Positions 23,707 to 47,297 are shown, counted from the first letter of the stretch. The stretch is 64,000 nt of DNA from Deltaproteobacteria bacterium CG11_big_fil_rev_8_21_14_0_20_47_16 (GCA_002796325.1 PCXA01000007.1:145780-209779), one strand, 5' to 3'. Notes: a model not told the origin generated them from the letters alone. Numbers and translations are program-made.

Positions 23707-24684
23707 TTACTGACCCAGCAAATATGCAAACATGAGTGGGGCAACGATTGTGGCATCGGACTCAATGATGAACTTGGGTGTTTCTGCGGCCAATTTGCCC
23801 CAGGTGATTTTTTCATTGGGAACGGCACCAGAATATGAGCCATAGCTCGTGGTAGAATCGCTAATCTGACAGAAGTAGCCCCAGAGTGGAACGCTTGTGC
23901 GCTGCATATCTTGGTGTAACATGGGAACGACACAGATGGGGAAGTCGCCTGCAATACCGCCACCGATTTGGAAGAATCCGAGTGATGTGTTCTTTGTGGT
24001 TTCGGTATAATAATCTGCCAACCACTTCATAGTTTGAATGCCGCCCTTAACAGTGGTGACATTTTTGACATTTCCTAACATGCAGTGTGCAGTGTACATA
24101 TTGCCTAATGTGGAATCTTCCCAACCCGGTACAAAGATGGGCAGATTTTTTTTGCTCGCTGCAACCATCCAAGAATCTTTAGGATCAATTTGATAGTGCT
24201 TTTCAATCGCACCACTGCGTAAAATTTTATACATGAATTCGTATGGGAAGTACTGCTCACCCTTATTGTCAGCCATTTTCCATTCTTCCAAAACGACTGC
24301 CTCAATGCGACGCATGGCTTCGCCTTCGGGAATGCAGGTGTCGGTGACGCGATTTAAATGGCGATCCAGCAGCTTTTGTTCATCAGCTGCAGTGAGGTCA
24401 CGATAATGGGGAACGCGTTCGTAGTGGTCGTGCGCTACTAGGTTGTAAATATCTTCTTCCAAATTAGCACCTGTGCAGCAAATGGCATGCACTTTGTCTT
24501 GGCGGATCATTTCAGCCAATGTCAGTCCCAATTCGGCGGTACTCATGGCTCCTGCGAGCGTCATGAACATTTTGCCACCTTTGGCCAAATGGGCCTCATA
24601 GGCCTTCACCGCGTCCATGAGTGCCGCAGCATTAAAGTGACGGTAGTTGTGCTCGATAAATTGTGAAACGGGACCTTTAGCCAT
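23707..24684 (-). CDS. Deoxyhypusine synthase-family protein (possible homospermidine synthase-like)
   Basis: Family recognised from overall sequence; AAGGAGG RBS before ATG 24684; ORF track start is a 5' extension. Confidence 0.75.
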   Translation of the reverse strand: MAKGPVSQFIEHNYRHFNAAALMDAVKAYEAHLAKGGKMFMTLAGAMSTAELGLTLAEMIRQDKVHAICCTGANLEEDIYNLVAHDHYERVPHYRDLTAADEQKLLDRHLNRVTDTCIPEGEAMRRIEAVVLEEWKMADNKGEQYFPYEFMYKILRSGAIEKHYQIDPKDSWMVAASKKNLPIFVPGWEDSTLGNMYTAHCMLGNVKNVTTVKGGIQTMKWLADYYTETTKNTSLGFFQIGGGIAGDFPICVVPMLHQDMQRTSVPLWGYFCQISDSTTSYGSYSGAVPNEKITWGKLAAETPKFIIESDATIVAPLMFAYLLGQ

Positions 24685-24779
24685 GATGCGCCTCCTTGAT
24701 TCTGTTTGCGTGATAAATATAGATGCTGTAAAGCCTCGATTAAACCGATCTGTCAAGAAATTCTGAAAGGATGATTCCC

Positions 24780-25955
24780 ATGGCACAGCTCAAAACCACT
24801 GATTATTTCAACATTAGCGGGCTTTTGACGGATGACGAAATTCAAATTCAGAACATGGCGCGTGATTTTGTGGTGGATGAAGTTCTGCCGGTGATTACGC
24901 AACATTATCGTGATGGCACGTTTCCCATGGAGCTGGTACCTAAGATGGGGCAGCTGGGATTTTATGGTGCCAATCTGCCAGAGGAATATGGCTGTGCGGG
25001 CTTGAATAACGTTGCCTACGGTATTTTGATGCAAGAGTTGGAGCGCGGTGATTCCGGTGTTCGCAGTTTTGCGAGCGTGCAGGGTGCACTCGTGATGTAT
25101 CCGATTTTTGCGTATGGTTCTGAAGAGCAAAAGAAGCATTGGTTGCCTAAACTGGCCAAGGGCGAGAAAATCGGATGCTTTGGTTTAACGGAGCCCGATC
25201 ATGGGTCTGACCCTGCGGGCATGGAAACCAAGGCACGTCGCGATGGCAACGACTGGGTGTTGCATGGGGCCAAGATGTGGATCACGAATGGAACCATTGC
25301 TGACGTAGCGGTGGTGTGGGCCAAAGATGAAGCGGGTGTGGTGCAAGGATTTTTGGTGGAGAAGGGCATGAAGGGATTTTCGGCGCCTGAAATGACCGGG
25401 AAATTAAGTCTGCGCGCATCGGTGACATCGGAGTTGGTGTTGGATGAGGTGCGTGTACCCGATGCCACGCATCGCTTGCCCAAGACACAGGGACTTAAAT
25501 CCGCACTGGGGTGCTTGACGCAGGCACGTTACGGCATTGCGTGGGGTGGTGTGGGTGCTGCGATTGCGTGTTATGAATGTGCGCTGGAATACGCCAAGAG
25601 TCGTGTGCAATTTGACAAACCGATTGCAGGGTTTCAATTGGTGCAGCGTAAACTGGTGGAGATGCTAACCGAAATTACAAAAGGGCAGTTGTTGGCATTG
25701 CAACTTGGTCGCCTCAAAGACAAAAATGAAGCCAAATTTTTTCATGTGTCGATGGGCAAGATGAATAATATTCAACTCGCTCGCGACTGCGCGCGCACCG
25801 CACGCGAAATTTTAGCAGCGAATGGTATTTTGGATGAGTACCCTGTGATGCGCCACATGATGAATATTGAATCGGTCTACACCTACGAAGGCACCAATGA
25901 CATGCACACCTTAATTTTGGGTGAGCACATCACAGGTATTCCCGCGTATCGGTAG
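24780..25955 (+). CDS. gcdH: Acyl-CoA dehydrogenase, glutaryl-CoA dehydrogenase-like
   Basis: GCFGLTEPDHGSD and YEGTNDMH motifs; about 390 aa. Confidence 0.8.
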   Translation: MAQLKTTDYFNISGLLTDDEIQIQNMARDFVVDEVLPVITQHYRDGTFPMELVPKMGQLGFYGANLPEEYGCAGLNNVAYGILMQELERGDSGVRSFASVQGALVMYPIFAYGSEEQKKHWLPKLAKGEKIGCFGLTEPDHGSDPAGMETKARRDGNDWVLHGAKMWITNGTIADVAVVWAKDEAGVVQGFLVEKGMKGFSAPEMTGKLSLRASVTSELVLDEVRVPDATHRLPKTQGLKSALGCLTQARYGIAWGGVGAAIACYECALEYAKSRVQFDKPIAGFQLVQRKLVEMLTEITKGQLLALQLGRLKDKNEAKFFHVSMGKMNNIQLARDCARTAREILAANGILDEYPVMRHMMNIESVYTYEGTNDMHTLILGEHITGIPAYR

Positions 25956-33424: not shown

Positions 33425-33467
33425 AAACGCCACGAGAGTTGATCGAAGGAGACCGCGTGGCGTTTTT
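33425..33467 (+). promoter_or_regulatory. Perfect 10-bp stem hairpin (AAACGCCACG / CGTGGCGTTT) with 21-nt loop and T-run, enclosing the aminotransferase RBS and start
   Basis: Read directly; loop holds GAAGGAG, stem holds the GTG start candidate at 33457. Confidence 0.5.
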
Positions 33468-34776
33468 GCATCCCCACATTAAAACCAAACTTCCCGGACC
33501 TAAATCCAAAAGGGTCCTGGCACTCGATGAAAAATACGTCTCACCGTCTTATACCCGTAGCTATCCTCTTGTTGCCAAAAGTGGTCGTGGGTCGTTTATT
33601 GAAGACATGGACGGCAACGTCTTTCTCGATTTTACATCCGGCATTGCAGTGACTGCGTCAGGCCATTGTCACCCACGTGTGGTAAAGGCGATTCAAGAGC
33701 AAGCCGCCAAACTCATTCACATGTCAGGCACCGATTTTTATTATCCCCAACAAGCAGAGCTTGCTAAGCGCCTGGTGAACCTGTTTCCTGGTGGAAAGGG
33801 CAGTGGTAAGGCATTCTTGACCAATTCGGGCGCAGAATCCGTCGAAGCCGCATTAAAGCTCGCCCGCTGGGTGACCAAACGTCCGCAGATCATTTCATTT
33901 TTGGGGGCTTTCCATGGGCGTACCATGGGCGCGTTGTCCGTGACTGGGAGTAAAATCACACAAAAGGAACGATTCTTTCCGCTCGTTCCAGGTGTGACGC
34001 ATGTGCCGTATCCGGATCCGTATCACACGCCCAAAGGGATGACACCGGATGACTATACCAACTTTTGTTTAGACTGGATTTCTGAACGCATTTTCAAAAC
34101 GATTGTGCCACCATCTGAAGTTGCTGCAATTATTGTCGAACCCATTCAAGGTGAGGGTGGATATATTGTCCCTCAAAATAGTTTCTTCAAAGGATTGCGC
34201 AAAATTTGTGATGCACACGGCATTTTGCTGATTGTTGATGAAGTACAAAGCGGAATTGGACGCACGGGCAAAATGTTTGCAATCGAACACACGGGTGTAA
34301 CACCGGATATTATTTGTATCGCCAAGGGCATTGCTTCAGGATTGCCGTTGGGTGCCATGATCGCGCGCGGGTCTATTATGCATTGGACAACCGGTGCACA
34401 CGCCAACACATTTGGGGGTAACCCTTTGGCCTGTGTGGCGGCAACCGCCACGTTGGATTTGTTAGATGAAGGCATGATGAAAAATGCGGCCAAGCAAGGT
34501 GAGTATTTGATGAAAAATTTGCAGGGCATGATGCGTCGCCACTCTGAAATTGGAGATGTGCGGGGCAGAGGCCTCATGGTGGGTGCTGAAATCGTGTCTG
34601 ACCGCAAACGTAAGACCCGCGCACCCAAACGGCGGAACGACATTGTCGATAAGGCGTTTCGCAAGGGGCTTCTGCTTTTAGGCTGTGGCCCCAATACCAT
34701 TCGGTTTGCGCCACCGCTTTCTGTGACGCGTGCCGAAGTGGATATGGCACTCAAAATATTTGAGGCATGTTTATGA
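33457..34776 (+). CDS. Class III PLP-dependent aminotransferase (GabT- or lysine-aminotransferase-like)
   Basis: KLPGPKS N-terminus and DEVQSGIGRTGKMFA lysine region; start is GTG 33457 or TTG 33439. Confidence 0.85.
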   Translation: MAFLHPHIKTKLPGPKSKRVLALDEKYVSPSYTRSYPLVAKSGRGSFIEDMDGNVFLDFTSGIAVTASGHCHPRVVKAIQEQAAKLIHMSGTDFYYPQQAELAKRLVNLFPGGKGSGKAFLTNSGAESVEAALKLARWVTKRPQIISFLGAFHGRTMGALSVTGSKITQKERFFPLVPGVTHVPYPDPYHTPKGMTPDDYTNFCLDWISERIFKTIVPPSEVAAIIVEPIQGEGGYIVPQNSFFKGLRKICDAHGILLIVDEVQSGIGRTGKMFAIEHTGVTPDIICIAKGIASGLPLGAMIARGSIMHWTTGAHANTFGGNPLACVAATATLDLLDEGMMKNAAKQGEYLMKNLQGMMRRHSEIGDVRGRGLMVGAEIVSDRKRKTRAPKRRNDIVDKAFRKGLLLLGCGPNTIRFAPPLSVTRAEVDMALKIFEACL

Positions 34777-36329
34777 AAGATAAAATCAGTTTATTATCGG
34801 GTAGCGTTGTTGAAACGGGCACCAAGACATTTACCTCTATCAATCCTGCCGACACATCAGACACAGTTGCCACATTTGCGCATGCCAGTCGTGACCAGGT
34901 GAAAGTCGCCTGCGAGCGTGCACGCAAAGCATTTGCCAGTTGGAAAAAAGTACCTGCACCGGTGCGAGCGGGCATTATTCAAAACTGGGGTCGCTTAATT
35001 GAATCCAACAAAGAAGCGTTATCGCAATTGGTGAGTCGCGAAATGGGCAAACCATTGCGCGAAGCGCGCGGCGATGTGCAAGAAGCGATTGATACATGCA
35101 ATTTTTTTGTGAGTGAAGGGCGCCGCTTGTATGGCATGACCGTTCCATCAGAGATGGCCAATAAAGAGTGTTATACCTATCGCCGTCCGATTGGCGTCTT
35201 TGGTTGTATTTCTGCTGGCAATTTTCCGGTTGCGGTGCCGTCCTGGTATTTTGTGCCGGCGTTACTCTGTGGCAACACCTGCGTGTGGAAGCCCTCGGAA
35301 GATTCACCACTGACATCCTACTACCTGACGCAACTATTGTACAAAGCAGGCCTGCCAGACGGCGTGTTTTCAGTCGTGTTTGGTTCGGGTGCCAAGGGGC
35401 CAGGGGAATATTTAATTGATGGCGTGAATGACGGATGGATCGACAAATTTGGATTTACGGGGTCTACTGAAGTTGGTCGCCATATCGGCGAAGTCTGCGG
35501 CAAAAATTTACAAACGCCGTGTCTAGAGCTGGGTGGCAAAAATCCTATGGTCGTCATGGACGATGCGGACTTGGAATTGGCCACGACGGGCGCGCTGTGG
35601 TCTGGATTTGGTACCGCTGGCCAACGCTGCACCAGTCTGGGTAATTTGATTCTTCATACTCAAATTCGCGAAAAATTTCTCGGCATGCTCATGAAAAAAC
35701 TGGCCGCCATGGTGATCGGCGATCCTGCGAACCCCACAATTACATATGGTCCCATGATCAGTGAAAAATTCATGAATGATCACTTACGTAATCTGGACAA
35801 GTTGGTTAGTAAAACCCATAAGCTTTTGACGACGCAAAATGGCCGTATTACAGAGAAGAATCCCTGGGCTAATTGGGTTGGGGAATCTCCTGACGATGGC
35901 TACTTTTGTTTTCCCACAATTGTGGACAATGTCACACCAGACGATGAAATTTATCGGACCGAAACGTTTGGTCCCATGTTCAATGTCATGACGTGCAAAA
36001 ATTTAGATGAGGCTATCCGGTTGGCAAATGGTACCGGTTACGGCCTCTCATCAGCCATTTACACGAACACACCGGCGTCCGTGTACCAGTGGAAGGAAGA
36101 CATCAACGCCGGGATGACGAGTATTAACAATTCAACCACGGGTGCTGAGGCCCATTTGCCCTTTGGGGGCAATGGGAAGTCCGGCAACGGGTCGCGCCAA
36201 TCCGGCGTATGGGTATTGGATCAATTCACACGGTGGCAGTCCGTGAACTGGGATATGAGTGGAAAACTGCAGCTGGCCCAAATGGATACCGGATATGTAA
36301 GCGCAGATCTAGAGTACCGCATTCCCTAA
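34773..36329 (+). CDS. NAD(P)-dependent aldehyde dehydrogenase
   Basis: LELGGKNP and FTGSTEVG motifs, catalytic Cys in GQRCTS; ATGA overlap with aminotransferase stop. Confidence 0.85.
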   Translation: MKDKISLLSGSVVETGTKTFTSINPADTSDTVATFAHASRDQVKVACERARKAFASWKKVPAPVRAGIIQNWGRLIESNKEALSQLVSREMGKPLREARGDVQEAIDTCNFFVSEGRRLYGMTVPSEMANKECYTYRRPIGVFGCISAGNFPVAVPSWYFVPALLCGNTCVWKPSEDSPLTSYYLTQLLYKAGLPDGVFSVVFGSGAKGPGEYLIDGVNDGWIDKFGFTGSTEVGRHIGEVCGKNLQTPCLELGGKNPMVVMDDADLELATTGALWSGFGTAGQRCTSLGNLILHTQIREKFLGMLMKKLAAMVIGDPANPTITYGPMISEKFMNDHLRNLDKLVSKTHKLLTTQNGRITEKNPWANWVGESPDDGYFCFPTIVDNVTPDDEIYRTETFGPMFNVMTCKNLDEAIRLANGTGYGLSSAIYTNTPASVYQWKEDINAGMTSINNSTTGAEAHLPFGGNGKSGNGSRQSGVWVLDQFTRWQSVNWDMSGKLQLAQMDTGYVSADLEYRIP

Positions 36330-36363
36330 TGGGACTTGTGCACCTGTAGAAACGAGTTTCACA

Positions 36364-37776
36364 ATGTTTGGTCGCTTAGCTGTAAATCGCGATCAGGTGG
36401 ACGAATGTCGCAATAAGGCGCGCCTTATTGCCGAGCATATCCGCAAGATTGCAGAACATCACACAACCCTATCTGTTGAACAAGCCACATTGCGTGCGTT
36501 GGGTGCAGCAGGGAATTCACCGCAACCCATCATTCATGCCATTGCCAAAAAACTCGGTCCACAGTCGCTTAAGCTAGGTGTGGCGGGTTGGTTGGGGCGC
36601 ATCATGGTGGCACACAAATTGTCTCCGGAAAAGGCAGCTCAATTTTTAGCGCATCATGGATTGGGTAAGCCTGATTCTTTAAAGGATGTCCCCTGGAGTC
36701 AGGCACAGCGGGTGGTGCGCGAGTCTTTTGATAAATGGTCACGTAGTTTGCCGAAGCGCAGCAATGGGCGCATGAGGAATGGACAGTTTCGAGTGGCGGT
36801 ACAGGTGGAAACGGGCGACGCTCAAAAAGATTTAGCGCAGCTTTACTCTGCTTGGAAGGAATCTGATTTGGCCGTGGTGCAGGTGCCATATGGTTTGTCG
36901 GCGGATGGTATTGCCTCTCAGCGAGGTGGATTTATTTTTAAGAAGGGTTATCCTTTGCAAAAACAGATGCGTCGGGCGGTAGCAAAAAATGGTTCCGACG
37001 AAAAGTTGGTTTGCTGGGCAGGGGCAATGGCGCCTGAAACCGCAGTTGTGGCCGCTGAAATCCCTAGAACTCGTATGCGTGTGGACCCGATTTCCCGCAT
37101 TCATCAGGAAAAGATGGATCCACGCAAGGCTGTTATCGAATACAATATGATTTTGCGATTGTCGGCACGCACAGGTCTGCGATTGCACAATAATTTACAA
37201 GCATGGACTAGTTCCGCGTACGAAACCCACTTTTATCAAGCGATAGCCATGCAAATTGTTCTAGAGCAGTGGCTTATGTATTATCGCGGTGAACCCGAAG
37301 CCCAAGTAATTGTCTTGCCTGAGATCGCATCTCAAAATGGGGTACCCGATTTGGTTTCTGCGTTGGCGCGTAATCAATTGTGTCGCGAAATTTTTCCCCA
37401 GTCTGAAATGTGGCAACACACAGATGCCCCAAGTGCTGCATGGGACTCTGGTGTTGCGGCTGTTATTGGTCAAAGTGGTGTGATGGTGCCACAGACTGTT
37501 GATCGCAAATCAATTGCTGCGCTAGGAGCGGTATTCAAGCCACTTGCGTATGAATGTCAATTCAGCGATCACGGTCAACTCAGTCGTCTAATGCATACAT
37601 TGCTCGATCGCAGTATGAAGGAATTGCTTCGCCTATATCGCAACACCTGGAGTAAAGTTGTTCAACAGGATCATAGTGGTTTATTTGCCATGTCCAAGTT
37701 CACACATGGCAGTGATACTGTAATTGAAAAGGATCGCCGTTACTGGAACCCAATGGAAGAATGGTTCGGAGGTTAA
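36364..37776 (+). CDS. Lysine 5,6-aminomutase alpha-subunit (KamD)-family protein, orphan
   Basis: N-terminal EHHTTLSVEQATLRALG, internal CREIFPQ and C-terminal KDRRYWNPM resemble KamD motifs as recalled; no B12-binding beta subunit adjacent. Confidence 0.5.
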   Translation: MFGRLAVNRDQVDECRNKARLIAEHIRKIAEHHTTLSVEQATLRALGAAGNSPQPIIHAIAKKLGPQSLKLGVAGWLGRIMVAHKLSPEKAAQFLAHHGLGKPDSLKDVPWSQAQRVVRESFDKWSRSLPKRSNGRMRNGQFRVAVQVETGDAQKDLAQLYSAWKESDLAVVQVPYGLSADGIASQRGGFIFKKGYPLQKQMRRAVAKNGSDEKLVCWAGAMAPETAVVAAEIPRTRMRVDPISRIHQEKMDPRKAVIEYNMILRLSARTGLRLHNNLQAWTSSAYETHFYQAIAMQIVLEQWLMYYRGEPEAQVIVLPEIASQNGVPDLVSALARNQLCREIFPQSEMWQHTDAPSAAWDSGVAAVIGQSGVMVPQTVDRKSIAALGAVFKPLAYECQFSDHGQLSRLMHTLLDRSMKELLRLYRNTWSKVVQQDHSGLFAMSKFTHGSDTVIEKDRRYWNPMEEWFGG

Positions 37777-37777
37777 T

Positions 37778-38704
37778 ATGTCCGGAGTTGGCATTATTTT
37801 AAATCCGCATTCGCGTAGTAACCGCCGCAATCCCGGTCGTGTCAGGCGTTTGGGGTTCATTGTAGGTGATAAAGGGTCGTGCCACGCGACCAAAGATATT
37901 TTGGATGTGGGGCGAATTGCGCAGCAATTTAAGGAGCGTAATGTAGAGATATTGGGGATTAGTGGTGGTGATGGTACCAATCATTGTACGTTGACGCGTG
38001 TGCTTCAAGTGTATGGCGACGCCAAGCTACCTAAAATTGCATTCCTACGTGGTGGGACCATGAATAATGTGGCAAATTGCATTGGAATCAAAGGAACGCC
38101 CGAGCAAATTTTAGCTAATTTGATTAGTAAGCATGACGCAGGTGAAGAATTTAAGACGGTTGAGCTGGATATGATGACTGTGAATGGAGAATATGGATTT
38201 TTGTTTGGTGTTGGTGTGGTGGAGCGCTTTATGGAACATTATTACCGAGTGAAGGGATCAATGGTTTGGGCGGGTGTTTTGCTTGCACGTTGCATTCTTG
38301 CGCAGATTTTTAGGACACCATTTATCGATGAAATGTTTGAACGCTTTGACTGTAAAATTGAAGTAGATGGTGAGGTGTGGCCGTATAAAAATTATAATAT
38401 CATCCATGCCGGAACGGTTGAAACCTATGGATTAGGTTTCGATCCCTTCTATCGTGCACGTGAAAGGGAAGGGCACACACATATTATCGGATCGTCTGTT
38501 TTGCCATCCGATATTGGTTGGTCGCTCCCTAAGATCTGGATGCGCAAACCCACAAACTGTGAAAATGAATTAAGTTCTGTGGCAAAGCGTGTTGTAATCA
38601 CGTTTTCTGAGCCTCAGCCATATTTTGTAGATGGGGATATCAAAGCACCTACCACCCGCATTGAAATATCCTGTGATAAGCGAATTAGTTGTATTGTGAG
38701 TTAA
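37778..38704 (+). CDS. DAGK_cat-family lipid kinase (diacylglycerol / sphingosine / ceramide kinase-like)
   Basis: GGDGT motif; GGAGG RBS; start 2 nt after KamD-like stop. Confidence 0.7.
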   Translation: MSGVGIILNPHSRSNRRNPGRVRRLGFIVGDKGSCHATKDILDVGRIAQQFKERNVEILGISGGDGTNHCTLTRVLQVYGDAKLPKIAFLRGGTMNNVANCIGIKGTPEQILANLISKHDAGEEFKTVELDMMTVNGEYGFLFGVGVVERFMEHYYRVKGSMVWAGVLLARCILAQIFRTPFIDEMFERFDCKIEVDGEVWPYKNYNIIHAGTVETYGLGFDPFYRAREREGHTHIIGSSVLPSDIGWSLPKIWMRKPTNCENELSSVAKRVVITFSEPQPYFVDGDIKAPTTRIEISCDKRISCIVS

Positions 38705-38706
38705 TC

Positions 38707-41283
38707 TTACTGAAAATCATACATCTCTATGCCGCGCTCGGGATTGGCGGCAAAGACAATGCTACCAGAAGAATCAATGTCGGTGAATTGACATTCGGAG
38801 CAGTTCTCTCCAAACCCGCCATCCAGATCCAAAAGGGCAGCAGGATGTAATCCGTTCGTGCCGTTTAATTGGACAAGGTAATGACCACCAGCTGACACTA
38901 CTTTTCCTGTGGGGGCATCAACTGCTTCCTTAAAGATATTGAAACCGATATCCAAAATACGTGTGGTGGTAGCGCTTTCAATCCAACGCAGGAAACCATT
39001 GGGGTGTAAGTTGATAAACGTGTTCTGAAGTCGAACAGCAGATAGGCCAGATGCAGTATCGGCTTGTGGAAGTGGTGTAATTTCACCAGTTGGATTACAT
39101 GAATTGATGTCGGGTGCCATTTGTGGGCTAACATGCATATTCATTAACCACACATTGTACGTAGGGTTATAATGTTGGAAGAATCCCCTTAGGACAAAGT
39201 CACCTGCTTGAGGATCTGGAACAACACTTAGGCGACCCAAAAATTGAGCTTGATCATTGAGCTTTCCATAGCTGGTATTCCATGAATAATTATTGTTGGG
39301 ATCAACGATATCGCTGCATCCTTGAATAGTTGCTACGCGATTGAACATGGAAGCTGCAGAAATGTCCATTTGTGCAACGATAACGCGATACCGATTGGCA
39401 ATACCGTCCCATCCATGAACTAAAATTGCAAGATGGTAGATATTGGGTAATGCAGGATTGGTAAATACTTTGATATCATCAACACGTTCAAACTCACCGT
39501 TAACTCCCATTCCGCTAAATGCTCCCAAGGTATATAGATCAAATATACCAGTTTTATTGGAAGCCTTACTTAGAGAAAAGGCCATGACGGCAGGACCCTT
39601 GATGGCAGTGCTGATATTGTCACCAGTAATGGTATCCTTATAGACCCTCACACGTGGTCCTAGTGTGCCATGGCGCACATCAAAGATGAGACCACCCGAG
39701 TGAAATAGTCTGGCATTATTAGCGTCTGCCACGGAGTCATTATCTTGAGCATTGACGATCGGAAATGATGCATAATCATCAGATACTGTACTCTGAAATA
39801 CAGTCGCGTTCTTGGCCGTGTCGTTATAGCTGACAGATCTATTGCCAATGTTCAGTACTTTTGTGATGGCGGTGTATGGTACAGTCGTTGGTTCCCCTAG
39901 ACCATTTTGATAGTCTTTGTGCTCCCAAATAGCCGTTGTGGGACCAGTTGGTAGAAACTGTGGTACTGTGACAATCGTCTTAACGCCTACGTTGATTTCG
40001 TCAGTAGTAGATCGCATTGTTGCACTACGAACATAATCAAAAGGTTGTTTGGTGGGCCACACAGACCATTTTTGTTGAGTTGGTCCGGCAAAAAAGTTGT
40101 CAACGCGCGCAATGCTGTCCAAGCCACGAATGAATGCTGTAGAAACAAAAGTGTCCATGCGCCCCATTCGGAAATCACCAAGTTTTGCAGGAATGCCAGA
40201 CCATAGGTTTGCGATTGGAGTGCCAATGGGTGTGTTATAAGTTGCAATACCACTTTCCAAAACGGTGGGTGCTGAGAGTTGATAGCTTGTGCCAAATAAG
40301 AATATGGCTGTGGAGGTAATGTTAATATCTGACGCAAAGAATCGATCAAACTTTCCAAGTTGCATCACAAATGGCTCAACAGGTGTCTGACGAGCAATAT
40401 CGATCAAATATGCAGTTGATTGAAATGACAGCCATTCGTTTTGTAATGCCAGCTTGAACTGATCTGCACTTACAAATTCTTCTGGTAATCGTGATGACGT
40501 TAAGAATGCAGCTAATGTACTATCTGCTACAACTTTAGTGGGATGAAAGAGGCGTTTATCCTTGGCATTTGCAGGATCCACAGGATGATCCTTGGCTTGA
40601 TACGCAACAAACATGCAGCCAAACCCCAATTGAAGATCAGAAAGCTTTGCAATGAGTACGTTGTCATCAGCCACCATGTAGACCATTTCAGTAGGCTGCT
40701 CTCCTGCAGATAAAATTTGGTTTTTGGCAGTGGCAACGGATCGGATGCGCGTGATGGCATCTACGGACTTTTGGGATACAACTGAAAATGAATTCCCATT
40801 GTAATTCAGGCCAATAATATCGAGACCGCCGTCTGTTCCAACAAGCACTGTTGGATTGCTCGCATTTCCAGTAATAATAATGCTGCGGATCATGTTGTGG
40901 GTAGTCAAGGAAAGCGAATCACCAATATGTAATTTCCGTCCCTCATTCCATACCGGAATATAGCCAGAGAGTTGCTTGATGATGGCATATGCTGTTGTGG
41001 TTCCACCCCAGCTTTTACGATAGGCCCGCTGCATGGCAGTAGTGGCATATGTGGTTAAACTGACGGGGTTACCTGTTGTAATGTCTGAAAAGGCCCATTG
41101 TCCTGGGAGAGTGCCACATTCAGAGACCTTGGTGACGTTGCCAACGGCAGGGGCCTCAATAGTGGTAGGAGTAATGGTCGTTGTCGGGTTTTCAGGCGTT
41201 ATGTCGCCACTGCCGCCACATGCAGTCAAAAGTGTGGCAGTTAACAGTGTAAAAATAAAGGGTTTTTTAATAAGATCCCCCAT
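38707..41283 (-). CDS. Large (858 aa) lipoprotein, no recognisable domain
   Basis: Lipobox LLTACGGS; GGAGG RBS; Thr/Asn/Gly-rich, beta-rich composition. Confidence 0.6.
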   Translation of the reverse strand: MGDLIKKPFIFTLLTATLLTACGGSGDITPENPTTTITPTTIEAPAVGNVTKVSECGTLPGQWAFSDITTGNPVSLTTYATTAMQRAYRKSWGGTTTAYAIIKQLSGYIPVWNEGRKLHIGDSLSLTTHNMIRSIIITGNASNPTVLVGTDGGLDIIGLNYNGNSFSVVSQKSVDAITRIRSVATAKNQILSAGEQPTEMVYMVADDNVLIAKLSDLQLGFGCMFVAYQAKDHPVDPANAKDKRLFHPTKVVADSTLAAFLTSSRLPEEFVSADQFKLALQNEWLSFQSTAYLIDIARQTPVEPFVMQLGKFDRFFASDINITSTAIFLFGTSYQLSAPTVLESGIATYNTPIGTPIANLWSGIPAKLGDFRMGRMDTFVSTAFIRGLDSIARVDNFFAGPTQQKWSVWPTKQPFDYVRSATMRSTTDEINVGVKTIVTVPQFLPTGPTTAIWEHKDYQNGLGEPTTVPYTAITKVLNIGNRSVSYNDTAKNATVFQSTVSDDYASFPIVNAQDNDSVADANNARLFHSGGLIFDVRHGTLGPRVRVYKDTITGDNISTAIKGPAVMAFSLSKASNKTGIFDLYTLGAFSGMGVNGEFERVDDIKVFTNPALPNIYHLAILVHGWDGIANRYRVIVAQMDISAASMFNRVATIQGCSDIVDPNNNYSWNTSYGKLNDQAQFLGRLSVVPDPQAGDFVLRGFFQHYNPTYNVWLMNMHVSPQMAPDINSCNPTGEITPLPQADTASGLSAVRLQNTFINLHPNGFLRWIESATTTRILDIGFNIFKEAVDAPTGKVVSAGGHYLVQLNGTNGLHPAALLDLDGGFGENCSECQFTDIDSSGSIVFAANPERGIEMYDFQ

Positions 41284-41929: not shown

Positions 41930-42658
41930 CTATGACCTCATGTGTACCGGGTTTAAGCGAATAATACCGTCTAAAATATCAATGCGGGTCTTTTCGTATC
42001 GTTCAATAGTGCCAATATCGTTCCAATATCCAGTATGACAAATAGTGTCAAAAATCGCACCACTTGCAATAAGTGGTTTGTAACCATCGTTGATCACGGA
42101 TGATTCACCGTCTGGTAGTTGAGCAATGAGTCTTGGCGTGACAATTTGGACGCCTGCAAAAGTGACATCACCTTCACCAAATCCTGTGAGACGTCCATTG
42201 TCTGCAACACTCACAAGGCCATAATTATCTTCTGCTGAAACAGGGCAGGTGACCATAAGGCCTGCATGTTCGGGATTAAATGCTGCTATAACCGTTTTTA
42301 AATTGATGCCCATGAGTGTGTCGGCATTGATCGCAATGAATGGTTTATCTTCAAAAAATGGTGCTGCCTTCTTGAGTCCACCACCACTTCCTAAAATAGT
42401 GGGTTCTTCAGAATATGAAATACGCATTCCCCATTGGGATCCATCACCACAATACTCTGAGACTTGCTCACCTAAATAATGCAGATTGATTATGACATCA
42501 CGAATGCCCGCCGTTTGCAGTAGGCCTAGGCTATAGGCAATAAGTGGATGACCATCCATGGGAAGCATGGGTTTGGGTGTGCTATCGGTGAGTGGACGCA
42601 ACCGCGTTCCAAACCCAGCAGCAAGGAGCATAGCTTTGGTAATAGTCATGACTGCCAC
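41930..42658 (-). CDS. murU: Sugar-1-phosphate nucleotidyltransferase, MurU-like
   Basis: LLAAGFGTRLRPLTDSTPKPMLP nucleotidyltransferase motif; paired with AmgK-like kinase. Confidence 0.7.
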   Translation of the reverse strand: MAVMTITKAMLLAAGFGTRLRPLTDSTPKPMLPMDGHPLIAYSLGLLQTAGIRDVIINLHYLGEQVSEYCGDGSQWGMRISYSEEPTILGSGGGLKKAAPFFEDKPFIAINADTLMGINLKTVIAAFNPEHAGLMVTCPVSAEDNYGLVSVADNGRLTGFGEGDVTFAGVQIVTPRLIAQLPDGESSVINDGYKPLIASGAIFDTICHTGYWNDIGTIERYEKTRIDILDGIIRLNPVHMRS

Positions 42659-43680
42659 TCCGGGACATATGGGGTGAGTAGTGCCAGCAATTCAGGTCCG
42701 TCGTTAATTCGGTTTAATGCATCGCGAGCGTATCCCAGTGAAGTAGGAATAAATTCTAGGTAGTTGGGGTTTCCCTTAACGCGATCAATATATACAAAAC
42801 GTCCTGCATCTTTTAACTTGCGCTGCACAGTCACCAAATCAAAAGCACTTTGTACTTCTAAAAGAGGCATGTCCCGTAATGCTGCATATTGACCTATCAA
42901 CTTTTGCAAGACATCTGCAGATAAGGTGACGTAAGAATCGCGCAACAATGCGACCAGATCGTAAATATAAGGTCCACGAAGGGCATCCTGAAAGTCAATC
43001 ACTACAAGTGAGTCATTTTGGATGAGGATGTTCCGACTCTGATAATCACGGTGGGTAAATCCGTATGGGAGCTCGGTGATGGCCTTAGTAATACGATTTG
43101 TAATTGCTCTACATTCCTTTTGAACTTTTTCAGGTAGCGCTTCATTACGTCGTGCATCAATTGCCCATTCAATAAAGTGGGCAAATTCCCAGTTAAGCAA
43201 GGTGGCATCGAATGAACGCTGTAGGGCGATACATTCATGCGGACGTGCGGTGCCACATTGTGCCTGAATGGTTGAGAGTAAATCAACAGCCTTCCCATAC
43301 CAGAATAATTTGTCTGTATCTGAGGTTTGCGCAACCTTGGTGTAAAGTAATGTGTCGCCACAATCTTCAAGTAACATCATGCGAAGATCAGGGCTAAAGA
43401 ATATAATGTCTGGGACGGGAATTGCGTTTGATTTTAAAAATCTTTGAACATTCTGAAATGGGGTTTCTTCGATCGTCCCAGAAAAATTGGTAATTTCTTC
43501 AGATGCACTTGCCTTACCCTCTGGCAGTTGCATGACAATGTAGCTTCGACCATCTTTTAGGAATAATCGATAGTAGGTGCGATACGAGGCATCACCATGC
43601 AATTTAGTAATGGATTCAACTGTTGGTGCTTCTGCAAATGCTTCACTTAATAAGTGTGTGATTTTAGTGTCAGTAGTCAT
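42646..43680 (-). CDS. amgK: Aminoglycoside-phosphotransferase-fold kinase, AmgK-like (anomeric MurNAc/GlcNAc kinase)
   Basis: HRDYQSRNILI catalytic loop and IDFQDA; overlaps murU-like start. Confidence 0.65.
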   Translation of the reverse strand: MTTDTKITHLLSEAFAEAPTVESITKLHGDASYRTYYRLFLKDGRSYIVMQLPEGKASASEEITNFSGTIEETPFQNVQRFLKSNAIPVPDIIFFSPDLRMMLLEDCGDTLLYTKVAQTSDTDKLFWYGKAVDLLSTIQAQCGTARPHECIALQRSFDATLLNWEFAHFIEWAIDARRNEALPEKVQKECRAITNRITKAITELPYGFTHRDYQSRNILIQNDSLVVIDFQDALRGPYIYDLVALLRDSYVTLSADVLQKLIGQYAALRDMPLLEVQSAFDLVTVQRKLKDAGRFVYIDRVKGNPNYLEFIPTSLGYARDALNRINDGPELLALLTPYVPEWQS

Positions 43681-43724
43681 GTGGCCGCTATTAGCGGGCC
43701 GCAGGGACAAATGCAACGATGCAA

Positions 43725-46143: not shown

Positions 46144-47145
46144 TTATTGTTCAGTATTCATATCGGTGGTTGCTGGTGGTTCAAAAAGATCCTTGGATAC
46201 CCGTGTTAGATAAAATGCACCGACGATGGCCTTAAGTAACATGTTTCCGAAAATCCATAGCAAGCTAGAGCTGAGAATGATGGCTGCAGCTGTGAGTTCG
46301 CCACTGGCAATTAATGGTGACTGTACACTGTTTTGCAGCAGTTCAATGAGTGCACTATTGGTGATTCCCAATCCGCTTGGGCTAATGGGTAAAATTCCCA
46401 AAATAAAAGCAATTGGAGTGGCCCCAAGAACGGTCAAAAATGGGGCATGTGCATTGTAGGTGAGTAGTACGACATACATACAAGAAATAATGCTGGCATG
46501 CACGGGAGTGCGCATCAATGCCATTTTGGCATAGTCGCTAAGATGCGCTTCATGGAAGATCCGAAGAAACTTCTTTTGACGCAACCATTGGGTGACGCGC
46601 CATGGCTTGTTACTCCAGTAGTGCCAGTAGAAAAGATGTAAGATAAGTGCAACGGCAGCAAAGGCACCAAACCCACGTACTGTAGGACCCAAGTGCACGC
46701 CACGAATTTGAAAGTCCTCAAAGAAGGATCCTAAAACTGCCATTCCGATTAGCCAGTATAGATCTACAAGCGCTACGAAGGCAAATGTGCCCAGAACTTC
46801 CCATATGGGAATTTGCTTAGTGCGCTTTAAGTAATAGGCGAAGGCGCCTTGGCTGGCACCGTAATTGAGAATCATGATGAGATAAGTGACAGCGCGTGCG
46901 GGCATGAGTTCTTTAAAGCTAATGGGATGATGGAATCTAGACAGTACTGCAGAGAATGCCCAGTTATCCAACGCAAAGACAAAGAAGAAATAGAAAAGCG
47001 AAAAACCAGAAAACCACAATAAATTTGCGTGTTTAGCGGCGTTTATGAGGGAGGAGATAGGGTAGCTGTGGAAGAGCCAAGCAAAGATTCCAATGGCGAC
47101 TGCCCAAGGTCCAACCAATTTGAATATGTGAATTATGCGTTTCAT
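46144..47145 (-). CDS. Lysylphosphatidylglycerol-synthase-TM-like (flippase-like, UPF0104) membrane protein
   Basis: Polytopic membrane protein; family by recall; start uncertain (47145 preferred because 47292 sits inside a terminator hairpin). Confidence 0.55.
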   Translation of the reverse strand: MKRIIHIFKLVGPWAVAIGIFAWLFHSYPISSLINAAKHANLLWFSGFSLFYFFFVFALDNWAFSAVLSRFHHPISFKELMPARAVTYLIMILNYGASQGAFAYYLKRTKQIPIWEVLGTFAFVALVDLYWLIGMAVLGSFFEDFQIRGVHLGPTVRGFGAFAAVALILHLFYWHYWSNKPWRVTQWLRQKKFLRIFHEAHLSDYAKMALMRTPVHASIISCMYVVLLTYNAHAPFLTVLGATPIAFILGILPISPSGLGITNSALIELLQNSVQSPLIASGELTAAAIILSSSLLWIFGNMLLKAIVGAFYLTRVSKDLFEPPATTDMNTEQ

Positions 47146-47297
47146 TGTTTTTTCTAAGCAACTTTTTCCGTAACCAACCGATAACCTACATGAGTGAGGA
47201 TGAATACAAAAAAACACCAAAAGTAAATGACTTGGTGGGGCACGGGGGAAGGAGATACGCCCCATCCCATAATCCCCCACTCCTTCTCCCAAACAAA

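Follow-up and report, generated by a model that had tools for sequence, protein, structure and literature searches.

The window analysed in this study is a stretch of 64,000 nucleotides from Deltaproteobacteria bacterium CG11_big_fil_rev_8_21_14_0_20_47_16 (GCA_002796325.1 PCXA01000007.1:145780-209779). It holds four codirectional genes that encode a class-III aminotransferase (AT), an aldehyde dehydrogenase (ALDH), a 470-residue protein resembling KamD, the alpha subunit of lysine 5,6-aminomutase (LAM), and a kinase with a DAGK_cat domain. As described below, the KamD-like protein has lost the residues with which LAM holds its cofactors, and in related genomes it recurs next to the same kinase without the B12-binding beta subunit KamE. 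The tight coupling of the four genes, proposed in an earlier, sequence-only reading of this DNA, was confirmed by the coordinates of the open reading frames (ORFs), their spacing and the Pfam families of their products, namely Aminotran_3 (E 9e-129), Aldedh (1.5e-138), Lys-AminoMut_A (2.6e-17) and DAGK_cat (3.2e-11). The last 10 nt of the AT gene are shared with the ALDH gene, a gap of 34 nt separates the ALDH and KamD-like genes, and the ATG of the kinase gene at 37778 comes 1 nt after the TAA stop codon of the KamD-like gene (37774-37776). A Shine-Dalgarno sequence for the kinase, GGAGG at 37769-37773, lies within the last codons of the KamD-like gene, to which the kinase gene is translationally coupled, and translation of the kinase most likely starts at this ATG, as in all homologues. 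The transcription unit gave no Rfam match, and signals for promoters, terminators or riboswitches within it did not rise above shuffled controls.

The KamD-like protein and its cofactor site

Several comparisons identify the 470-residue protein as a true distant homologue of the LAM alpha subunit. It matched Pfam Lys-AminoMut_A (PF09043) with 62.9 bits at a gathering score of 25, over profile positions 1-364 of 508, and in a phmmer search of the PDB it matched only the LAM alpha chains 1xrs_A, 8t0v_A and 9q1a_C (E about 1e-11 to 1e-12). In its AlphaFold2 (AF2) model (pLDDT 69), eight strands lie between N- and C-terminal helices, and Foldseek ranked 9q1a_C, 1xrs_A and 8t0v_A first (E 1e-14), followed by ornithine aminomutase and generic TIM barrels. 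When a profile of the 13-member KamD-like family was compared with a profile of canonical KamD by HHalign, the two aligned over their full length at 24% identity, with a probability of 100% and an E-value of 7e-40. The 13 clusters of this family, at 43-54% identity, came from a word-seeded search, and an exhaustive profile search yielded 191 KamD-like relatives that grade into canonical KamD. Besides full-length homology, a (beta/alpha)8 barrel, helical segments at both ends and a place in a lysine-catabolic operon, the protein shares with KamD conserved motifs in its first ~95 and last ~70 residues as well as R-E-x-F-P. It differs in that its conservation is lowest in the barrel, where the true enzyme is most conserved, and in that, at ~24% identity, it has neither the loop for pyridoxal 5′-phosphate (PLP) nor a KamE partner. 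Its score against the NCBIfam equivalog model NF052384, 57.7 bits, is one tenth of the cut-off of 600.

In LAM alpha, PLP is contacted by Arg184, Gly187, Gln188, Ser189, Tyr236, Ser238, Tyr263, Arg268 and Asn299, with Asp298 nearby, and the conserved Glu341 has been proposed to hold the ribose of deoxyadenosine (PMC3958899). Only one of these ten PLP positions is kept in the window protein in a MAFFT alignment. The loop that binds the PLP phosphate is deleted both there and in the HHalign alignment, and the latter showed the replacements Y236A, S238A, Y263S, R268E, D298Q and N299A; the Glu341 position is occupied by Ala (E341A) and is variable within the family. The sequence-only reading had asked whether the residues of the PLP/B12 interface are kept; in these alignments, the PLP contacts and Glu341 are lost. 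Since the phosphate loop, the remaining PLP contacts and Glu341 are gone, the protein is predicted to be unable to bind PLP or to position 5′-deoxyadenosine, and would thus not be a PLP/B12 aminomutase. Among six defining features of KamD that were examined, it showed only the similarity in sequence and fold to PF09043 and LAM alpha, and failed the other five.

Related loci and the absence of KamE

Fifty-eight species-representative loci were retrieved by alignment of the kinase, and their neighbouring genes were classed with reference proteins and with Pfam and NCBIfam models. The counts given here refer to the 51 non-redundant loci in which the kinase is at least 41% identical to that of the window. 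In 28 of them, the genes upstream of the kinase make up a lysine-fermentation operon (KamA, KamD, KamE, Kdd), either canonical or seen in part, to which genes for Kce (a BKACE enzyme) and a Kal-like hotdog protein, or for a HemL-like, Kat-like aminotransferase, are often added. In L007, for example, Kdd, KamA, a KamD of 515 residues and a KamE with OAM_dimer and B12-binding domains precede the kinase. An orphan KamD-like gene without KamE lies directly upstream of the kinase in 17 of the 51 loci, a diverged KamD with a KamE that lacks the DxHxxG cobalamin motif in two (L030, L047), and other lysine-catabolic genes without KamD in four (L005, L011, L012, L019). No lysine genes were found near 12 kinases with less than 40% identity to the window kinase. 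At this position, sister genomes have a complete and ordinary operon for lysine fermentation with the same kinase as its last gene, and because they do so, the window gene is best read as a remnant of such an operon rather than as part of a new pathway. KamA, Kdd, Kce and Kal or Kat co-occur with KamD in sister genomes only, and none of them is present in the window.

The orphan genes stand in several contexts. AT and ALDH genes precede them in the window and in L001, L003, L004 and L065, while in L025 and L035 they are accompanied by genes for a lysine-ketoglutarate reductase (LKR)-like protein, a saccharopine dehydrogenase (SDH) and a piperideine-6-carboxylate (P6C) dehydrogenase that scores above its equivalog cut-off. 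In L014, L015, L017, L040 and L064, and also in L067 and L069, the KamD-like and kinase genes form a stand-alone unit of two genes, with neither AT and ALDH nor any further lysine gene alongside. For 16 of the 17 orphan loci, the distance between the two genes lay between -68 and +39 nt; the exception (L064, +127 nt) was measured to a truncated kinase fragment. Furthermore, four orphans were sampled from the profile search independently of the kinase, and all four had the kinase immediately downstream. In neighbour-joining (NJ) trees, which are too crude for the number or direction of transitions, canonical KamD formed a single short-branched clade, and the orphans fell into at least three deep, long-branched groups that mirror the grouping of their kinases.

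The state of the cofactor site went along with the presence of a partner. All ten PLP positions were kept in each of the 22 KamD proteins encoded beside a typical KamE, whereas every copy without KamE kept none to two. The diverged KamD proteins of L030 and L047 keep five and one of the ten, respectively, and with their motif-less KamE these pairs resemble transitional states, both subunits being on the way to losing their cofactors. The Kdd and KamA genes upstream in L047 still appear normal.

To assess the window itself, all six frames of its 64 kb were scanned with hidden Markov models (HMMs) built from the related loci. KamE, KamA, Kce and Kal gave no match at E<=10, and Kdd gave one noise match only. 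In addition, no annotated ORF of the window contained a B12-binding Pfam domain, and the only radical-SAM protein among them was HemN-like. Likewise, KamE was not found beside the orphan gene in any of 21 orphan loci. KamE itself is 67-80% identical across phyla among the at least 120 protein-database matches listed. Of what the sequence-only reading had put forward, the resemblance to KamD and the lack of KamE in the window are both borne out.

Selective constraint on the orphan genes

Intact ORFs of about 430-555 residues were found in more than 50 orphans, often only 25-55% identical to one another, which indicates that the orphan genes are no pseudogenes but are under purifying selection. 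For the pair L003-L004, dN of the KamD-like gene was 0.30 at a dS of ~1.5, and dN was 0.089 for both the kinase and the ALDH gene. As dS was saturated in every available pair, dN/dS ratios are upper bounds and only relative dN values are usable; dN/dS as an absolute measure was therefore dropped. Within the KamD-like gene, dN was low near the two ends, at 0.14 over the first 110 codons and 0.17 over the last 80, and rose to 0.40 in the barrel, so that the termini are 2.5-3 times more constrained than the barrel. This was in agreement with the alignment of the window clade, where 90 columns are invariant, including 31-34% of the terminal positions versus 11% of those in the barrel.

Residues shared by 75% or more of 56 orphans fall almost exclusively in positions 5-92 and 397-463, and they are the same residues that are conserved in canonical KamD. 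Barrel conservation is 0.25-0.5 in the orphans versus 0.8-0.9 in canonical KamD. Across the 56 orphans, no conserved residue specific to orphans was found. In LAM, as reportedly described by Berkovitch et al. in 2004, the N- and C-terminal segments make up an accessory clamp around the barrel and touch the adenosyl group.

The DAGK-fold kinase

With 43.4 bits (E 3.2e-11), the kinase exceeds the gathering score of Pfam DAGK_cat, 23.6. It contains the motifs GGDGT, GGTxNN and DGD, which are 80-100% conserved in the subfamily, and its AF2 model (pLDDT 87) has a two-domain fold. Foldseek placed DgkB/BmrU, SphK1 and YegS first (TM 0.6-0.68), with NAD kinases at TM 0.4-0.49. Sequence similarity to lipid kinases is marginal (profile E about 1e-6), and the score against TIGR00147 (YegS/Rv2252/BmrU), 36 bits, stays below the cut-off of 118. 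From its motifs and fold, the kinase is probably active and lipid-kinase-like, and its fold would suggest a lipid-like substrate. For the amino-lipid role that the sequence-only reading had offered as an alternative, the analysis gave evidence neither way apart from this lipid-kinase fold. The kinase subfamily is far commoner than the KamD-like family: clustering at 90% identity gave more than 325 clusters, at 45-87% identity to the window kinase.

A further, subfamily-specific motif, FIVGD[KR]GSC..T, contains an invariant cysteine. Seven of its 12 positions are 97-100% conserved in kinases of at least 41% identity and the others 48-82%, and the motif is missing from the distant kinases that have no lysine-gene neighbours. 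It may mark the substrate or partner site of the subfamily. In about eight loci (Table 1), the kinase gene is closely followed by a gene of the uracil-DNA-glycosylase family on the opposite strand and then by one for a zinc-dependent phospholipase C. Phospholipase C yields diacylglycerol, and this neighbour is a possible hint at the substrate of the kinase.

Another role was also considered for the kinase. A function in the salvage or reactivation of the B12 or PLP cofactor, as the classical 'E2', is unlikely, since the kinase persists together with cofactor-less orphans and in operons without Kam genes; for the canonical operons it is still conceivable.

The aminotransferase, the aldehyde dehydrogenase and the gcdH-like gene

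The AT matched Pfam Aminotran_3 with 430 bits and NCBIfam PRK05769 with 641 bits, above the cut-off of 552. Its best relative in the PDB is 7VNO (449 bits), a class-III aminotransferase of Pyrococcus horikoshii that was deposited as a hypothetical 4-aminobutyrate aminotransferase and was reportedly characterised as an ornithine/lysine omega-aminotransferase. An orthologue of 61% identity occurs in L011 together with a bona fide P6C dehydrogenase and a GcdH-like gene. Based on this nearest solved relative and on the P6C dehydrogenase/GcdH context in L011 and L012, the AT is probably an aminotransferase for lysine, ornithine or another omega-amino acid. Its ORF was called from a TTG at 33439, and a good Shine-Dalgarno sequence (GAAGGAG) lies ahead of a GTG at 33457, which may be the true start codon.

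The closest relatives of the ALDH in the PDB are the Thermus enzyme 6FJX, with 564 bits, and then Pcd/ALDH7A1 proteins with 245-271 bits. The best NCBIfam model was that of P6C dehydrogenase (NF050084), for which the window protein scored 357 bits at a cut-off of 730, whereas the ALDHs of L011 and L025 exceeded this cut-off with 805 and 787 bits. The window ALDH is probably an NAD(P)-dependent enzyme of the Thermus ALDH530 type that acts as a semialdehyde dehydrogenase on the AT product; since it falls below the P6C-dehydrogenase threshold, its substrate is suggested by its position only.

A gcdH-like gene lies outside the operon, at a distance of 7.5 kb. Its product scored under the cut-off of all NCBIfam models and is a possible downstream step of the same lysine route. 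The sequence-only reading had linked both this gene and a deoxyhypusine-synthase-like gene to the operon, and the two links fared differently. Orthologues of the gcdH-like gene, at 68-76% identity, were found in or adjoining the kinase operon in five related loci (L011, L012, L025, L031, L065), all of the oxidative type (AT/ALDH or saccharopine), which supports the link. The deoxyhypusine-synthase-like gene did not recur near the operon in related loci, and it was therefore rejected as a member of the pathway. The two genes are divergent and their called starts overlap by 16 nt, so at least one start codon is probably miscalled.

A route of amino-alcohol catabolism was considered as well. In the known version of this route, hydroxylysine kinase is followed by the class-III phospho-lyase PHYKPL and then by ALDH7A1. 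An equivalent series of kinase, phospho-lyase and ALDH was rejected for the window, since the kinase also ends operons without an AT and the AT is of the ornithine/lysine omega type.

Other features of the window and the related loci

The kinase gene is convergent with a gene for a predicted lipoprotein, and their stop codons are 2 nt apart. Homologues of this lipoprotein occupy the same position in L001 and L003 and, more distantly, in L019, and proteins similar to it in size come after the kinase in L007, L022 and L061. Also convergent with the kinase is a gene pair for an NTP_transferase and an APH-family kinase, which recurs in L056-L060 and many other loci. Since this pair is also found beside the distant kinases without lysine genes, its synteny is presumably older than the Kam association. 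In ten loci, a gene whose product has the LPG_synthase_TM domain and no other lies downstream of the kinase at a distance of 4-8 kb, and it shares a syntenic block with two small conserved proteins without a Pfam match.

Some proteins of the KamD family are unusually long. KamD proteins of the canonical type with 744-802 residues in L042, L045 and L066 have C-terminal extensions of ~230-290 residues, and the KamD protein P0194 (841 residues) has an N-terminal extension of 315 residues. The extensions of P0191, P0193 and P0194, the three that were scanned, contained no Pfam domain. Several KamE proteins and one orphan KamD-like protein carry long, extremely basic C-terminal tails rich in Lys and Arg, such as KPKRRRGKRGGRRHRKK, which are absent from typical KamE of ~250 residues.

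Table 1. Positions of the genes and other features described in the text. Positions refer to the window unless a related locus is named.
Feature	Position	Strand	Remarks
Class-III aminotransferase (AT) gene	33439-34776	+	445 aa; Pfam Aminotran_3
Aldehyde dehydrogenase (ALDH) gene	34767-36329	+	520 aa; Pfam Aldedh
KamD-like gene	36364-37776	+	470 aa; Pfam Lys-AminoMut_A
DAGK_cat kinase gene	37778-38704 (ORF called from 37724)	+	308 aa (326 aa from 37724)
Kinase motif FIVGD[KR]GSC..T	37856-37891		kinase residues 27-38
gcdH-like acyl-CoA dehydrogenase gene	24771-25955	+	Pfam Acyl-CoA_dh_N/M/1; outside the operon
Deoxyhypusine-synthase-like gene	23707-24786	-	
Predicted lipoprotein gene	38707-41283	-	858 aa; no Pfam domain
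NTP_transferase and APH-family kinase genes	41930-43716	-	MurU/AmgK-like
LPG_synthase_TM-only protein gene	46144-47292	-	
Diverged KamD/KamE pair	L030:7158-9820		
Diverged KamD/KamE pair	L047:4054-6556		
Basic-tailed protein	L007:6813-7898		
Basic-tailed protein	L013:3224-4234		
Basic-tailed protein	L047:5546-6556		
Basic-tailed protein	L008:6562-8025		
Uracil-DNA-glycosylase and phospholipase C genes	L021, L024, L030, L033, L034, L036, L037, L046		downstream of the kinase

Discussion

On balance, we lean towards the view that an oxidative AT/ALDH route has replaced the B12 route at this locus and that KamD, no longer an enzyme, has been kept as a partner of the kinase without a catalytic role. 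In the uncultured 'deltaproteobacterial' groundwater lineage to which the host would belong, the block would be an operon for the catabolism of lysine or an omega-amino acid, and its ancestral form would have been a fermentation operon of Kdd, KamA, KamD and KamE, in many cases also Kce and Kal or Kat, with a lineage-specific DAGK-fold kinase as the last gene. The window clade would then have swapped the fermentative enzymes for an oxidative pair, with loss of KamE, KamA and Kdd. The omega-aminotransferase would convert a terminal amine to an aldehyde and the ALDH this aldehyde to an acid, which would probably feed glutaryl-CoA dehydrogenase. In several clades, either the saccharopine pathway or AT and ALDH may have taken over from the oxygen-sensitive B12 route at the same locus. 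KamD alone would have been retained, as a pseudoenzyme that consists of the (beta/alpha)8 barrel and the terminal clamp segments without a site for PLP or deoxyadenosine. It would serve the kinase as a scaffold or a regulatory subunit, binding through a surface already present on the canonical KamD of this lineage. Indeed, the KamD-like protein has lost the cofactor residues while its fold, an intact ORF and purifying selection are kept, as is characteristic of a pseudoenzyme. We infer the non-catalytic, physical partnership with the kinase from the constant adjacency of the two genes, their abutting or overlapping junctions, and the focus of selection on the clamp segments.

Several observations weigh against this reading. 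The kinase is present without any KamD or KamD-like gene in L005, L011, L012 and L019, and a Rosetta-stone fusion of the two proteins was rejected, as none of eight unusually long KamD-family proteins carries DAGK_cat. Synteny extends further downstream of the kinase, where the NTP_transferase/APH, c8, c11, c16 and LPG_synthase_TM genes recur, the first two even beside distant kinases. The KamD-like gene may therefore owe its place next to the kinase in part to a gene order that was simply inherited. The terminal segments could be conserved merely for folding or dimerisation of any KamD fold. Since the window ALDH is no orthologue of P6C dehydrogenase, the assignment of AT and ALDH to lysine derives from context. 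In addition, the NJ trees are too crude for the direction of the transitions, and with dS saturated the dN/dS ratios are upper bounds.

Alternatively, the barrel might have been neofunctionalised into a cofactor-independent enzyme that makes the substrate of the kinase or consumes its product in a two-step pathway. An eight-stranded barrel is retained, the window clade has invariant barrel residues (R138, N139, Y196, R237, Y260, W281, H289, E301, Q346, E348 and W350), and tight coupling to a kinase that is predicted to be catalytically competent is typical of consecutive pathway steps. We nevertheless consider a new enzyme unlikely, as the barrel evolves faster than the termini and holds a far lower share of invariant positions, no barrel residue is conserved across the 56 orphans beyond those of canonical KamD, and the kinase does without a KamD-like gene in four loci. 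The sequence-only reading had envisaged a KamD scaffold repurposed in a non-canonical pathway. Of this, a repurposed protein that is no longer an aminomutase and sits in a lysine-catabolic operon still stands, whereas the catalysis of a new lysine or diamine step is not supported, given the lost cofactor residues and the lack of newly conserved residues across the orphan clades. That the protein is still an aminomutase, which would pair with a KamE encoded elsewhere for a 1,2-amino shift on lysine or a related diamine, is hardly credible. It does exceed the Pfam gathering score, and KamE is known to be absent from the 64-kb window rather than from the whole metagenome-assembled genome. Against this stand the deleted phosphate loop, the replacement of nine of the ten PLP contacts and of Glu341, the low equivalog score and the lack of KamE beside the 21 orphans; moreover, the KamE that accompanies a degenerate KamD in L030 and L047 has itself lost DxHxxG.

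The gene order could also be all that links the two genes, in which case the KamD-like protein would act elsewhere, for instance as a lysine- or nucleotide-sensing subunit of AT/ALDH or of a transporter. The extended synteny, a layout of kinase and NTP_transferase/APH genes that predates the Kam link, and the constant position of the kinase downstream of genes for lysine breakdown by several unrelated chemistries would fit this explanation, as would the reported regulation of LAM by ATP through an OraS-type module (PMC3958899). We regard it as distinctly improbable in view of the seven stand-alone units of KamD-like gene and kinase, junctions that overlap or measure a few nt, and KamD-like clades that match those of the kinases. 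Even less probable is that a functionless, decaying relic is kept because its 3′ end holds the ribosome-binding site or promoter of the kinase. The Shine-Dalgarno sequence does lie within the KamD-like coding sequence, the gene evolves about three times faster than its neighbours, and its catalytic residues are all gone. A relic is difficult to reconcile with more than 50 full-length ORFs at such low mutual identity, with a dN well below dS and 90 invariant columns, and with conservation that peaks at the N-terminus, the end most remote from the start of the kinase gene; nor was any other member of the old operon kept in this way.

How this locus relates to known systems can be seen from several comparisons. 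In oxidative lysine catabolism, lysine epsilon-aminotransferase or the saccharopine pathway leads to 2-aminoadipate semialdehyde (AASA), followed by a P6C/AASA dehydrogenase of the ALDH7 type and by glutaryl-CoA dehydrogenase. The window shares with it the AT, an ALDH at the same position and the gcdH-like gene nearby, and related loci join the same type of AT with a true P6C dehydrogenase and GcdH, or LKR/SDH-like genes with that dehydrogenase; the window ALDH differs in belonging to another subfamily. To our knowledge, neither a KamD-like protein nor a DAGK-fold kinase belongs to any known oxidative lysine pathway. Compared with DgkB, BmrU, YegS and SphK1, the window kinase has the same two-domain fold, the GGDGT, GGTxNN and DGD/E motifs and a length of about 300 residues, but it also has the subfamily-specific FIVGD[KR]GSC..T, and its fixed association with lysine operons is unreported for characterised members. 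With pseudoenzymes derived from metabolic enzymes, the KamD-like protein shares the loss of cofactor residues under retention of fold and purifying selection. Within a limited literature search, we found no described pseudoenzyme from a B12/PLP aminomutase subunit and no earlier description of a KamD without KamE or of a link of the KamD-like protein or the kinase with oxidative lysine catabolism, which is absence of evidence only. Described lysine-fermentation clusters comprise kamA, kamD, kamE, kdd, kce and kal or kat (PMC3149608), and the sister genomes carry the same set, including a HemL-like aminotransferase like Kat. The DAGK_cat kinase is not mentioned there, whereas the clusters of this lineage end in one; the window has no catalytic member of that pathway and carries AT and ALDH instead.

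A more far-reaching proposal, which we put forward tentatively and think less likely to hold than to fail, is that KamD has a second, cofactor-independent function in its clamp segments, as a dedicated partner of the kinase (activator, scaffold, or sensor of nucleotide or lysine), a hitherto unrecognised enzyme that would be tied to lysine catabolism throughout an uncultured lineage. LAM is reported to be regulated allosterically by ATP, and this regulation to be restored by OraS (PMC3958899). This makes a nucleotide-sensing role conceivable for the N-terminal module of the KamD-like protein, although the match of this module to OraS, seen in P0182, is only near-threshold and similarity to OAM_alpha stayed below threshold. 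Short matches to profile positions 1-100 were rejected as OraS proteins, as they are N-terminal fragments of KamD at contig ends.

B12/PLP radical enzyme subunits are, as far as we know, normally viewed as purely catalytic and useless without their partner. In three or more deep clades, the KamD-like protein has outlasted its partner, its cofactors and the entire pathway, each time beside the same kinase, and this points to an unrecognised non-catalytic function. The kinase in turn represents a widespread, uncharacterised DAGK-fold subfamily, for which the only functional clue is its place at the end of lysine operons of four chemistries. Annotation based on Pfam would label the KamD-like genes as lysine 5,6-aminomutase, and lysine fermentation would thus be wrongly predicted. 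The comparative pattern is clean, and the proteins are small, soluble and suited to heterologous expression. The series from canonical through half-degenerate to orphan KamD constitutes a natural experiment in which an oxygen-sensitive B12 route is replaced by an oxidative route at one locus. If KamD does have a second function, this function alone would keep the protein alive after the loss of B12 chemistry, and it might help to solve the long-standing puzzle of how ATP activates native LAM. The KamD-like protein and the kinase would then form a new two-component module that connects amino-acid catabolism to the phosphorylation of a lipid or another hydrophobic alcohol.

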